Shown: positions 3,192 through 5,667, counted from the first letter of the stretch. The stretch: 38,011 bases of DNA from a virus (IMGVR_UViG_2585427747_000001:1-38011); one strand, 5' to 3'. Translations and numbers: made by a program. Notes: generated by a model not told the origin, from the letters alone.

Positions 3192-3554
3192 TTAACGACC
3201 TGCTGCGCGGAGTTTTCCGTCAGGTTCACCGGCAAGAGTCAGTAACTGTCCCTGGTCTTCCTGCAGAATAGTCAGGCGACCACCGCGATTGACATACATC
3301 GGCGTTTCGGTGGTGTCTTCTTCGGAAATTTTCCCGCGGTTAGTCGGGCGAACATATGAGAGTTTGTGTTTGATTTTCACACGGTTCTCATCAAATGGTT
3401 CGATTTCCAGGTTGAGTGAGACCTTACCTTTGGTTTTCGTGTTCATCACACCGGAAGCGACTTCACTGAGAACTGCGCCGATTTTGGTTTCAAATACGCC
3501 GCCGTCCAGCTCCCCGATAAATGCCTGCACATCAGTACTGCGTTCGCTAGCCAT
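3192..3554 (-). CDS. Hypothetical prophage protein (120 aa)
   Basis: The ORF track gives 226 aa, but the 5' extension runs through a GC-rich structured region; an internal ATG (MASERSTDVQAF…) is preceded by GAGGAG and gives a compact 120-aa product. Confidence 0.55.
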   Translation of the reverse strand: MASERSTDVQAFIGELDGGVFETKIGAVLSEVASGVMNTKTKGKVSLNLEIEPFDENRVKIKHKLSYVRPTNRGKISEEDTTETPMYVNRGGRLTILQEDQGQLLTLAGEPDGKLRAAGR

Positions 3555-3602
3555 TTTGCTGCTCCTCATCATATCGACCCTGCAAGGCCGATTAGTTTCT
3601 CC

Positions 3603-3691
3603 ACAAAACAGAGAAGAACACCTGCGGTGGCAGCCGCCCGGATGGATTGGGTTATGAGCCCGTCGTCCGGTGATGCTCTTCTCTGTTTTGT
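3603..3691. other. Long inverted repeat (15-bp arms acaaaacagagaaga / tcttctctgttttgt, ~59-nt spacer with further internal pairing) in a GC-rich non-coding stretch
   Basis: Read directly from the sequence; lies in a 470-bp region (3555-4022) covered only by overlapping ORFs on both strands without protein-like character. Confidence 0.6.
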
Positions 3692-3957
3692 AAAAAGGAC
3701 GGTACCAGCCGGAAGCAAGGGTACAAACTGGTACCGCCGGGACTACACACAGCATAAAGTTGTGGTGCCGGGTGCCTCCCGGTGCCTGGCGAAGGTTGCA
3801 CACCAGACGGGTGGGTATCCACAGAAGGTCGACTGTCAGCCTCAACCTTAACCCGCGTGCGCTGAGCCGCATTCACCACAACGCTAAGGATTCTCTCTGG
3901 TTAAAAATACTTAGCTGTTATGTGCCTGCTTTTAGCCACATCAGGCGAGGTGGACCT

Positions 3958-4007
3958 GGTTATTCCCCAACAACAAGGATTCGGTTAATCTGGTTATCCC
4001 CAACAAC
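3958..4007 (+). promoter_or_regulatory. Two direct repeats GGTTAT(T)CCCCAACAAC (~3958-3974 and ~3992-4007) immediately upstream of the 4023 start codon; candidate regulator-binding or 5'-UTR element
   Basis: Near-identical 16/17-mers 34 bp apart; the second ends 16 nt before the ATG; a purine-rich RBS (aaaggaaaag) lies between. Confidence 0.45.
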
Positions 4008-4022
4008 GCAAAAGGAAAAGAA

Positions 4023-4457
4023 ATGTCCGGTAATATCTACACGCTGTACAAATCCCACTGTGAAAATGTTGGAAAGTATCGGGGCATTGAAATCAGTGGG
4101 GTAGTGTCATCAGTCGAAATAAGCAAAGTGGAATCAAGGGCAACATTACTTACTCTTCTGGACCTTGTCTTACATGAGCACCGGAAGAAATTCGGCACTC
4201 CCTATAATCAGTTGAATGGGAAAAAGGCTCTGGTTCACCTTATTCTGATGAAGCATCACTGGATGCCAAAACAGATTAATGAGATGAAATTTGATGAACT
4301 TCTTCTTTCAATTCAGGATGAACTCACACTTGATAAAATAAGCGTAACCGCCCAGAAATTTTTAGATTATCGAGACTGGAGATCACAAATTCATCACTTT
4401 GATGATTTTGACGAAAATGAATGGGATCCTAATTTGTCTGCACAATATCTAAAGTAA
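4023..4457 (+). CDS. Hypothetical AT-rich accessory protein (144 aa), antisense to the leftward early operon
   Basis: Clean ORF with RBS; visibly lower GC than the flanking phage genes; no recognisable motifs; 3' end overlaps the convergent small gene by ~29 bp. Confidence 0.6.
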   Translation: MSGNIYTLYKSHCENVGKYRGIEISGVVSSVEISKVESRATLLTLLDLVLHEHRKKFGTPYNQLNGKKALVHLILMKHHWMPKQINEMKFDELLLSIQDELTLDKISVTAQKFLDYRDWRSQIHHFDDFDENEWDPNLSAQYLK

Positions 4458-4635
4458 CATCCTGTGATAAAACCGTGATTTCCTGATCCAGTTTTTTTAA
4501 GGAGTCTATTGTTTCCTGTCGATAAGACAGCACTTCACGAAGCTGGTTTATAGCTGCCAGCTTCTTTGCCATCCACTCGTAAATTTCCTCATTTGTGTAT
4601 CCGGGCGCGACGATTTTGGGTTCTGTTTTGTGCAT
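4429..4635 (-). CDS. Small hypothetical protein (68 aa, predicted coiled-coil), first gene downstream of the putative pL
   Basis: Start trimmed to MHKTEPK…, preceded by GAGGAGG; convergent with and overlapping the 3' end of 4023-4457. Confidence 0.5.
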   Translation of the reverse strand: MHKTEPKIVAPGYTNEEIYEWMAKKLAAINQLREVLSYRQETIDSLKKLDQEITVLSQDVTLDIVQTN

Positions 4636-4883
4636 TTCACACCTCCTCAAGTTATCAGTTACTTGTTGATGGGGACCAGATTGTTAAAGAGCTAAGCGTC
4701 CTGTAGGGCGCTTTTTTGTTGCTAACGAATCACCCTAGACTTCATATGCCCCAGGCGGCTACTTCGTGGGCGTCCTGCCTGTTCGTTTTTGACATTTACT
4801 GACTGCTTACGACACATGCACCGTGTTGCAACCAGATTTTGTTGTAATCCTGTAGTTGGTCTGGAACAAAAGATAAAATTAAA

Positions 4884-4920
4884 TTGCGAGATATGCAAGT
4901 GATATTTGCGAGATATGCAA
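4884..4920. promoter_or_regulatory. Putative OL: two tandem 15-bp operator-like sites TTGCGAGATATGCAA (22-bp period), probably overlapping the leftward early promoter
   Basis: Exact direct repeat; the same TTGCG-N6-GCAA pattern recurs between the repressor and cro genes; on the minus strand each site contains a TTGCAT hexamer that could serve as a -35. Confidence 0.55.
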
Positions 4921-4932
4921 CTTTATAGGTAA

Positions 4933-4955
4933 TAAAAAGCCACCTTTCGGTGGCC
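4933..4955 (-). terminator. Rho-independent terminator downstream of the repressor gene
   Basis: GC stem gccacc/ggtggc with a tttc loop; on the minus strand it is followed by a T-run. Confidence 0.55.
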
Positions 4956-4974: not shown

Positions 4975-5667
4975 TTAATTATGTCTCTTAAGGGTTTGCG
5001 ACTGACTGATTAAGACCTTTCCAAAGACCATGAATCGGTGTTCGTTTTCGCTAGTAATTCCCCATTCACGGTAAATCTGGTTATCAGAAATCACCAGCAG
5101 TTTGTCAGGAATCATTTGAAGTCTTTTAACGTATATTTTGTCATCAAAACCAAAGACATATATACCATCACCATCAAACTGATTGATGCTGACATCAACG
5201 AAGATGAGATCTCCTGGCTCAATGGTTGGACACATACTGTCCCCACGAACGTTGATAACTTTGATGTGATTGGCTGGTCGTCCGCCGAACATTGATACAG
5301 CATTATCAGTTCTGTATTCGATGGCATGAATCACATCAATGACATCACCGCCCTGGATAAGGCCATTTCCCGCACTGGCACTGATATCCAGCATTTCAAT
5401 ACGGAACACATCCTTCACCTGCGCAACATCCTCATTATTACTGTTTTTATATACAGTATTACTTTTGTGGGCAGAGGTAAAGAGATCAGCAATATCAACA
5501 CCTAAGCTCTTGGCAATATTACTCAGTGTTTGTTCGGTAAATTGTTTTTGCTTACCCGTTTCTAAGCGCGAGATGTTCGCCGCATCTACTCCTATTGCTT
5601 CAGCGAGATCGGCGATTTTCATGTTCTTCGCTTGGCGAAGTTGTCTGACTCGGTTTCCTATGTTCAT
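4975..5667 (-). CDS. CI-like prophage repressor (N-terminal HTH, C-terminal S24 LexA-type peptidase domain)
   Basis: N-terminal HTH (RVRQLRQAKNMKIADLAEAIGVDAANISRLETGKQ); 230 aa; divergent from a cro-like gene with operators between. Confidence 0.8.
   Translation of the reverse strand: MNIGNRVRQLRQAKNMKIADLAEAIGVDAANISRLETGKQKQFTEQTLSNIAKSLGVDIADLFTSAHKSNTVYKNSNNEDVAQVKDVFRIEMLDISASAGNGLIQGGDVIDVIHAIEYRTDNAVSMFGGRPANHIKVINVRGDSMCPTIEPGDLIFVDVSINQFDGDGIYVFGFDDKIYVKRLQMIPDKLLVISDNQIYREWGITSENEHRFMVFGKVLISQSQTLKRHN

Follow-up and report, generated by a model that had tools for sequence, protein, structure and literature searches.

A conserved pair of convergent, overlapping genes forms a candidate lysogen-expressed moron cassette in prophages of the Enterobacterales

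Introduction

Among the classical morons and lysogenic-conversion genes of temperate phages, lambda bor is read against lytic transcription, and rexAB, sieB and the nun gene of HK022 are positioned next to the immunity region. Here we describe a two-gene cassette that occupies positions 3954-4723 of a viral sequence of 38,011 nucleotides (IMGVR_UViG_2585427747_000001:1-38011; the whole stretch analysed is referred to as the window). It consists of the open reading frame (ORF) ORF144 (4023-4457, plus strand), which encodes an ECs1072-family phage-associated protein of 144 amino acids, and of ORF68 (4429-4635, minus strand), which encodes a YdfC-like small coiled-coil protein of 68 amino acids. 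Like the morons of lambda and HK022, the cassette has a deviant base composition and a patchy presence, is found at a hotspot near immunity or downstream of the Q antiterminator gene, and would be an autonomous transcription unit; it differs from them in lacking sequence or fold similarity, in encoding soluble proteins, and in comprising two genes with an obligatory antiparallel overlap. We moderately favour the view that it is a lysogen-expressed moron whose expression is coupled, through convergent transcription, to the state of the operon in which it resides.

The closest described relatives are two genes of the Salmonella phage ST64B, STMMW_20121 (2090066-2090500; 435 bp) and STMMW_20131 (2090430-2090789; 360 bp) (Owen et al., 2020; PMC7067206). 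For this pair, a promoter of its own and transcription in the lysogen have been shown experimentally, including a transcription start site for the ORF144 homologue; STMMW_20121 alone was named as a candidate accessory gene, the pairing, the family and a function not being described (PMC7067206), and our literature search found no later mention of STMMW_20121. By gene lengths, a 71-bp overlap and a 161-bp spacing from the holin gene, STMMW_20121/STMMW_20131 are the ECs1072/Sb50 pair of locus L004 in our collection. They are homologous to the genes studied here: ORF144 shares 29% identity with the 144-amino-acid ORF of ST64B (E = 5e-16), and the small partners are linked through a hidden Markov model (HMM). 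The ST64B genes are likewise convergent, overlapping and antisense to lytic genes, but they are found between Q and the holin gene rather than in the pL operon, overlap by 71 bp as opposed to 29 bp, and their small protein is longer and possesses a C-terminal WDPSP tail.

A second point of reference is YdfC, encoded in the dicBF operon (ydfA-ydfB-ydfC-dicF-dicB) of Qin. It belongs to the same protein family as ORF68 (phrog_1744); the annotated ydfC genes of Qin-like phages show 38-39% identity to ORF68 in tblastn comparisons, and both are promoter-proximal small genes of repressor-controlled leftward operons. Qin-type loci differ from the cassette described here in that an ECs1072-family partner is missing and that dicF follows ydfC; in the Qin-like phage L006, a sub-threshold match to the STnc100 RNA family follows ydfC as well. 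Neither the literature on YdfC, including PMC5069750, nor the LF82 prophage paper offered a clue to function.

Names for both protein families thus exist in databases, and lysogen expression of the ST64B homologue has been pointed out before. New, as judged from the literature that we searched, are the obligatory YdfC/Sb50-type pairing, the conserved antiparallel overlap, the presence of the pair in two operon contexts, and the cargo hotspot at which it is found.

Results

Two genes with an antiparallel overlap

ORF144 begins with an ATG codon preceded by an AAGGA Shine-Dalgarno sequence. Its product matches the NCBIfam profile NF033230 with 157.8 bits (cutoff 70), residues 4-144 aligning with positions 2-142 of the 142-position profile, and phrog_5286 with E = 1.5e-90; proteins identical to it are labelled "ECs1072 family phage-associated protein" in RefSeq. 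ORF68 likewise begins with ATG, preceded by a GAGGAGG Shine-Dalgarno sequence; an alternative TTG start at 4650, which would yield a protein of 73 amino acids, was judged less likely. The ORF68 protein aligns over its full length (residues 1-68 of 68) with phrog_1744 (E = 4.8e-34), and this full-length match, together with the promoter-proximal position of the gene in a repressor-controlled leftward operon, identifies it as YdfC-like. The ratio of nonsynonymous to synonymous substitution rates (dN/dS) is about 0.2 for ORF144 (window versus L110) and about 0.45 for ORF68 (window versus L107); few pairwise comparisons are usable, the other pairs being saturated at synonymous sites or affected by frameshifts. 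The strong family HMM match of each protein and the dN/dS values below 1 in the usable pairs indicate that both ORFs are genuine genes.

The 3' ends of the two genes overlap in antiparallel orientation by 29 bp (4429-4457), as deduced from the ORF coordinates. The initial annotation of the window had pointed out this arrangement of a plus-strand gene within a leftward operon, with the coordinates that we recovered, and had suggested that the two genes might be partners. Comparative data show the two genes to be linked. When the loci that we fetched were clustered at 90% identity into 15 lineages, a convergent small coiled-coil homologue overlapping the ECs1072 gene by 29-110 bp was present in 14 of them. 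The distant homologues that we viewed (about 25-35% identity) stem from Salmonella phage ST64B, Klebsiella phage KPP5665-2, Serratia, two species of Photorhabdus, Providencia, Proteus, Klebsiella oxytoca and Atlantibacter, and from two further subtypes labelled Escherichia coli. In every one of these distant loci, all neighbours of the ECs1072 gene are read from the other strand, and the gene shares 71-110 bp with a convergent gene for a protein of 78-96 amino acids; these small partners resemble ORF68 in their N-terminus (xPYFFNPGMTxEELEDWL) and in their coiled-coil body. ORF68 and the Sb50-type partners are only weakly similar (20% identity); however, when an HMM built from five Sb50-like partners was run against 917 ORFs, the best non-self matches were YdfC (E = 4.5e-4) and ORF68 (E = 1.6e-3), the next match having an E-value of 0.2. 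The small protein from Serratia matches both phrog_3501 and phrog_1744.

The counts of the two genes in E. coli are nearly equal: of 5,426 complete genomes, 421 were detected with a probe for ORF144, restricted to the part not overlapping ORF68, and 415 with a probe for ORF68 alone. Megablast searches for two other E. coli-labelled subtypes returned none and one complete genome, respectively. In a scan of viral contigs, the overlap was constant in 80 near-identical copies of the pair.

The pair is found in two operon contexts. In the window and in L110, L107 and L108/109, where the closer relatives of ORF144 reside (proteins 52-72% identical), it is positioned next to the cI gene, and the repressors concerned are of several different kinds. 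In the distant loci, it is located between the Q antiterminator and holin genes, directly after a tR'-like terminator, and this Q-holin context involves three families of Q proteins (PF06323, PF03589, PF06530). The Q-holin placement is the commoner one among the relatives. In every locus viewed, the ECs1072-family gene is antisense to its flanking genes and stands at the head of a lytic operon. Collectively, these observations identify the two genes as one unit, a conserved convergent overlapping pair.

Within the overlap, the invariant tryptophan of the ECs1072 C-terminus (DW-x-P) lies opposite a W-x-P motif of the small protein. In ST64B (L004, 3683-3692) and in the Klebsiella phage (L005, 3747-3756), this stretch is a perfect palindrome, TGGGATCCCA, that reads WDP on both strands; it is exact in these two loci only. 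In the window (region of 4424-4433), ORF68 ends one codon before this position.

Properties of the ECs1072-family and YdfC-like proteins

When 1.84 billion cluster representatives were searched exhaustively with a profile, only about 120 relatives of ORF144 were retrieved, all of them single-domain proteins of 80-200 amino acids; the majority has a length of about 145-155 amino acids, the remainder being shorter fragments. No fusion to a known domain was found among them. The named relatives all derive from Enterobacterales (Escherichia, Salmonella, Klebsiella, Citrobacter, Hafnia, Shimwellia, Atlantibacter, Serratia, Xenorhabdus, Photorhabdus, Proteus and Providencia).

ORF144 is predicted to be a soluble, mildly acidic protein (isoelectric point 6.4) without a transmembrane segment, and its AlphaFold2 model is an all-alpha fold of high confidence (predicted local distance difference test score 90.1). 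Comparisons with PDB, BFVD, Pfam and PADLOC gave no sequence or structural match. The checks by remote homology and structure that had been proposed for both proteins placed them in families (NF033230 and phrog_5286; phrog_1744) and provided a confident fold for ORF144, but no structural or Pfam counterpart of the latter. Since the invariant residues of the family are mostly hydrophobic, with the addition of one histidine and two tryptophans, ORF144 would seem to resemble a binding protein more than an enzyme. For ORF68, the AlphaFold2 model consists of a single long helix (residues 15-67), with the conserved extended peptide EPKIVAPGYTNEEIYEWM located N-terminal to it; no match was found in Pfam, PADLOC or among PDB sequences.

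ORF68 contains an A7 tract on the minus strand (4486-4492), and many of its database variants are +1 or -1 frameshifts at this position (P0050, P0055 and the L110 gene); in other variants (P0015, P0020), the TAG stop codon is read through into ...NWDPIHF. We considered whether such C-terminal variants might represent alternative junctions of the cassette and rejected this idea, as they are accounted for by the A7 frameshifts or by stop-codon read-through; these variants may stem from noise in sequencing, from decay or from phase variation. On the minus strand, a weak terminator-like hairpin with a run of T residues behind it (4339-4354) is present within ORF144, 75 nucleotides downstream of the ORF68 stop codon. 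It could end a short ORF68 transcript or be a chance occurrence, the scan having returned 7 sites where 2.0 +/- 1.2 were expected.

The pair is a mobile cassette at a cargo hotspot

BLASTN comparison with Shigella phage SfII (L003) set the limits of the cassette at 3954-4723: identity is 96% up to position 3953 and 99% from position 4724 onward, while SfII carries an unrelated 496-bp segment in between. The cassette is likewise without counterpart in SfV and in many E. coli prophages that share both flanks; ORF144 is hence not a core early gene of this phage group, as the proposal of a defence or exclusion function had presupposed. Sharp boundaries between 96-99% identical flanks are the presence/absence pattern of a moron, and the base composition agrees with it. 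The G+C content (GC) is 0.386 for ORF144 and 0.411 for ORF68, compared with 0.506 for the window, and the local profile falls to 0.35; the lower GC of ORF144 had been noted in the initial annotation. Low GC is likewise a property of the cassettes in L004, L005 and L009, but not of those in the AT-rich hosts of L011 and L012. A flanking inverted repeat was considered as a general signature of mobility and rejected, because it is not present in the Q-holin loci.

At least six different cargos occupy the cassette site in E. coli and Shigella prophages, and none of the others is related in sequence to ORF144 or ORF68. In SfII (L003, 3144-3503), these are orf36 (63 amino acids, plus strand) and an unannotated ORF of 68 amino acids (minus strand), which converge and overlap by 39 bp; in e14 of E. 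coli K-12 (L116, 2036-2623), ymfI and ymfJ converge with a 63-bp overlap. Both share with the window the site between the STnc100-like/ymfH flank and the repressor gene. Other E. coli prophages carry single genes at this position, encoding a 171-amino-acid coiled-coil/zinc-ribbon protein, a 170-amino-acid secreted LprI-like protein or a protein of 91 amino acids. Convergent overlapping pairs thus seem to be recurrent at the hotspot (window, SfII, e14).

Putative control sequences of the two genes

The initial annotation had described the region upstream of ORF144 as decorated with repeats, and we found there two tandem copies of CTGGTTAT(T)CCCCAACAAC (3956-3974 and 3989-4007, plus strand), 15-65 nucleotides upstream of the start codon. 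A third copy of the motif is inverted (AATCTGGTCCCCATCAACAA on the minus strand; 4663-4682) and precedes the start codon of ORF68 by about 28 nucleotides. When the motif was searched for in degenerate form, 2 matches occurred in the window, with 0.01 expected by chance. The sequence AATCTGG-N5-7-CCAACAA precedes both start codons by 15-30 nucleotides, in the same orientation relative to each gene, and it has been kept in the window, L110, L107 and L109 despite the divergence of the proteins to 52-72% identity. The non-coding sequence upstream of ORF144 is conserved.

Because the motif precedes both convergent genes, each transcript has a 5' untranslated region (UTR) that is complementary to the 3' end of the same molecule. 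For ORF144, the computed energy of the duplex between these two regions is -29.4 kcal/mol, compared with -19.1 +/- 3.9 kcal/mol for shuffled sequences, 5 of 300 of which reached this value; across the four cI-adjacent loci, the values are -29 to -30 versus -19 +/- 4 kcal/mol, with at most 6 of 300 shuffles reaching each. The shared motif could be either a protein-binding site or an RNA-RNA element.

The terminator scan detected an intrinsic terminator for the ORF144 direction at 4694-4713 (plus strand), with an 8-bp GC-rich stem followed by U6. The hairpin has an energy of -12.1 kcal/mol on the plus strand versus -7.5 kcal/mol, and no U tract, on the minus strand, so that the cassette has a terminator of its own that works in this orientation alone; it is kept in all four cI-adjacent loci (window, L110, L107, L109). 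Given this terminator, the ORF144 transcript should cover all of ORF68 in antisense, including the ribosome-binding site, and end short of pL/OL.

The Q-holin loci are equipped differently. Most of them possess another conserved sequence, TTGATAtTGTTAAATCGCCAAAaGTAACAA, about 20-45 nucleotides upstream of the ECs1072 start, with a good -35-like hexamer. A terminator hairpin is found just upstream of the small gene, and several loci have another one on the ECs1072 side; in the cI-adjacent loci, the hairpin is oriented so as to halt transcripts running in the ORF144 direction.

Expression of the ST64B counterparts

Strand-resolved RNA-seq data are available for ST64B (PMC7067206). STMMW_20121 was transcribed at 60-269 transcripts per million (TPM) in 16 of 17 conditions, the value in late stationary phase being 4.9 TPM, and STMMW_20131 at 23-258 TPM across the 17 conditions (PMC7067206). 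The corresponding ranges were 0.3-33 TPM for the holin gene and 1-4.6 TPM for Q (PMC7067206). Upon peroxide and nitric oxide shocks, which induce ST64B lytic genes, STMMW_20121 fell from 269 to 113 and 105 TPM, respectively, and STMMW_20131 rose from 108 to 148 and 258 TPM (PMC7067206). The direction of these changes, in what are single bulk measurements, fits convergent interference.

Genetic surroundings of the cassette

The window belongs to the lambdoid prophages of the SfIV / CPS-53 / e14 type. All neighbours of ORF144 are read leftward, with yfdP, yfdQ, yfdR, yfdT, xis and int on one side and the gene for a cI-like S24 repressor on the other. The repressor gene (4975-5667, minus strand) was recognised by its helix-turn-helix (HTH) and Peptidase_S24 domain matches. 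A repeat search found two identical 15-bp operators, TTGCGAGATATGCAA, at 4884-4920; they constitute the putative OL and overlap a presumed pL promoter, whose -35 and -10 elements were deduced from the sequence. The terminator scan placed a cI transcript terminator at 4938-4955 (minus strand; -13.2 kcal/mol, z = -3.4). As the operators and this terminator separate ORF68 from the repressor gene, ORF68 would be the first gene downstream of pL, in line with the position directly after the putative pL/OL that had been assigned to it.

The left arm with yfdT, yfdR, yfdQ and yfdP is 99.7% identical to Shigella phage SfIV as far as position 4790, and the immunity region is 99% identical to SfII from 4724 onward. 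The window hence is a mosaic, SfIV-like to the left of 4790 (and identical up to there) and SfII-like to the right from 4724, and the 67-nucleotide stretch shared by both (4724-4790), within the conserved pL leader, is likely the recombination joint. A stretch of about 70 nucleotides just downstream of pL (4724-4792) recurs with 84-93% identity in phages of Pantoea, Citrobacter, Yersinia, Klebsiella and Salmonella that have nothing else in common with this region. A leader element of the nut/put type or of another kind is conceivable; no gene resembling N is apparent, and the leader (4724-4800) gave no Rfam match and no significant folding (z = 0.09).

The left flank of the insertion site contains an STnc100/PasD-like structured RNA (3689-3912, minus strand), which belongs to the pL operon and is flanked by the cassette and yfdP. 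The match to RF02076 covers the full length of the model, yet its score of 42.6 bits (E = 3.6e-7) falls short of the gathering threshold (47). STnc100 matches on this side of the cassette exceed the threshold in the Klebsiella phage L005 (108 bits) and in the E. coli-labelled Q-holin locus L094 (79 bits), and are borderline in L110 (46 bits). STnc100-like matches, some of them sub-threshold, border variable cargo elsewhere, for instance beside dicF in the Qin-like phage L006. A member of this RNA family has been reported 75 nucleotides downstream of stx2 (PMC12370729), and the family has been discussed as a prophage marker (bioRxiv 10.64898/2026.05.13.724894). In RefSeq, a "frameshifted hypothetical protein", and in SfIV the ORFs 34 and 35, are drawn over the RNA; these annotations and an ORF of 226 amino acids at 3192-3872 are probably artefacts, with yfdP proper extending from 3192 to 3554.

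In Proteus prophages, the region beyond a 140-amino-acid gene upstream of the cassette carries either SIR2_2 and DUF87 or SMC_N/AAA_13 cargo (L100, 4392-5453; L101, 4338-5453), which indicates a second variable hotspot with defence-like cargo near the Proteus cassette.

Discussion

The architecture of the cassette, the linkage of its two genes, its mobility and its terminator are established features of the locus, and the reading that we prefer, with some reserve, is that of a lysogen-expressed two-gene moron. In the lysogen, ORF144 would be transcribed from a promoter of its own, as measured so far for the ST64B homologue alone, and its mRNA would cross the whole of ORF68 in antisense before stopping at the plus-strand terminator (4694-4713). 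Firing of pL, or of pR' in conjunction with Q in the other context, would then yield a sense transcript from which ORF68 is made and which continues antisense through ORF144, so that ORF144 might be turned down by transcriptional interference and RNA pairing. The shared 5' motif, AATCTGG-N5-7-CCAACAA, may serve as a common control point for both genes, at the level of either DNA or RNA.

What the proteins might do is a far more speculative matter. ORF144 may be a soluble binding protein of the lysogenic phase, with exclusion of, or defence against, an incoming phage as its most plausible task, and the small helical protein may be its lytic-phase partner or antagonist; we consider a role of this type doubtful. 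Similarly tentative is the idea that the pair represents an unrecognised two-component prophage system, e.g., for superinfection exclusion or abortive defence, whose effector has a new all-alpha fold and whose self-immunity resides in the layout of the genes: once the lytic operon of the prophage fires, convergent transcription would shut off the effector while the small helical antagonist is being made.

Several observations weigh against the lysogen-expressed moron. A scan for sigma-70 consensus sequences upstream of ORF144 yielded no promoter that passed. The independent transcription in the lysogen that had been predicted for ORF144 is consequently borne out for its ST64B homologue (PMC7067206) and extrapolated to the window from a protein that is only 29% identical and whose gene is part of another operon. 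The small gene of ST64B is expressed in lysogens too; a strict division, with ORF144 confined to lysogeny and ORF68 to the lytic phase, therefore cannot hold for that phage, and this expression does not fit an antidote made solely on induction. One lineage, L093, has an ECs1072-family gene without the partner, and in Qin-like phages YdfC-type genes are found without an ECs1072-family gene. As to function, searches of Pfam, PADLOC and PDB and fold searches did not connect either protein with any fold known from defence, exclusion, toxin or regulator proteins; PADLOC-DB v2 gave no match for ORF144, ORF68 or the ST64B pair, a homologue from Providencia showing a 13.8-bit chance match to GajB. Both proteins are cytoplasmic, unlike many exclusion proteins, and neither sequence or fold similarity to Lambda Rex / SieB-type exclusion systems nor a membrane component was detected. 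The defence or exclusion function originally proposed for ORF144 thus gained no support from these searches.

The main rival to a moron is a self-regulatory latch of the prophage itself, in which the outward-firing ORF144 promoter, its antisense RNA and perhaps its protein would keep leaky transcripts from pL or pR' from extending into the genes from yfdP to int/xis here, or into the holin gene elsewhere; lysogeny would thereby be stabilised, or lysis and excision timed, and the small protein, as the first product of the operon, would lift the block. Such a device would explain why antitermination-type lytic operons that carry the cassette invariably have it as their first element, behind the first terminator, and it accords with the terminator hairpin upstream of the small gene in the Q-holin loci, with the cI-adjacent hairpin that stops ORF144-direction transcripts, and with the full complementarity of the ORF144 mRNA to ORF68 including its ribosome-binding site. 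It also accords with the transcription of the ST64B cassette while the adjacent holin gene stays at or below 33 TPM, and with the fact that three unrelated hotspot cargos (those of the window, of SfII and ymfI/ymfJ of e14) are all convergent overlapping pairs. However, the remaining hotspot cargos are single genes, functional close relatives (SfII, SfV and many E. coli prophages with both flanks) manage without the cassette, and a device based purely on RNA or a promoter would not need a 144-amino-acid protein under purifying selection with a conserved fold. We regard this explanation as possible, though rather unlikely.

Two further explanations are disfavoured. A toxin-antitoxin (TA)-like addiction or abortive-infection pair, in which one protein is inhibitory and is neutralised by the other or by an antisense RNA, could account for the tight linkage across lineages. 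Convergent genes with 3' overlaps are known from the type I TA loci txpA/RatA and bsrG/SR4, whose layout the cassette recalls, and A7-tract frameshift variants of the small gene are common in databases. Nevertheless, both partners encode conserved soluble proteins, not small hydrophobic peptides as in type I systems (grand average of hydropathy about -0.5; maximal Kyte-Doolittle value over 19 residues below 0.9), and the genes are convergent, unlike those of the co-directional type II operons. No toxin or antitoxin family was matched, and a search for HTH, ribbon-helix-helix and AbrB domains, as present in DNA-binding antitoxins, was negative; moreover, the ECs1072 gene stands alone in L093 and ydfC stands alone in Qin, and in neither case is a replacement partner obvious. 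A TA-like module is accordingly improbable. We give slightly less weight still to the notion that the genes are functionally unrelated, ORF68 being a usual early gene of the YdfC-like kind next to which a moron, ORF144, arrived independently, and their overlap fortuitous. It draws on the solitary YdfC-like genes in the dicBF operons of Qin-like phages (PMC5069750) and on the weak relationship of ORF68 to the Sb50-type proteins (20% identity, HMM E-value about 1e-3). Chance adjacency is hard to reconcile with an arrangement that 14 of 15 lineages share, with protein identity dropping to about 25-30%, and that is found in two operon contexts and across Escherichia, Salmonella, Klebsiella, Atlantibacter, Serratia, Photorhabdus, Proteus and Providencia, with the nearly 1:1 counts of the two genes in E. 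coli, or with the Serratia small protein that bridges phrog_3501 and phrog_1744.

The subtype of the window alone occurs in about 8% of the complete genomes of E. coli, and its relatives extend across prophages of the Enterobacterales. Few prophage genes are strongly transcribed in lysogeny, and the Salmonella counterpart is one of them; such behaviour is typical of genes that shape host phenotypes such as phage immunity, virulence or stress tolerance. The site between the STnc100-like RNA and pL emerges as a cargo hotspot that includes ymfI/ymfJ of e14 in E. coli K-12. Conservation of the overlap across two lytic operons points to a wiring principle, whereby a gene placed head-on to a lytic promoter is on in the lysogen and off upon induction, and this principle could help to find other lysogen-specific cargo.

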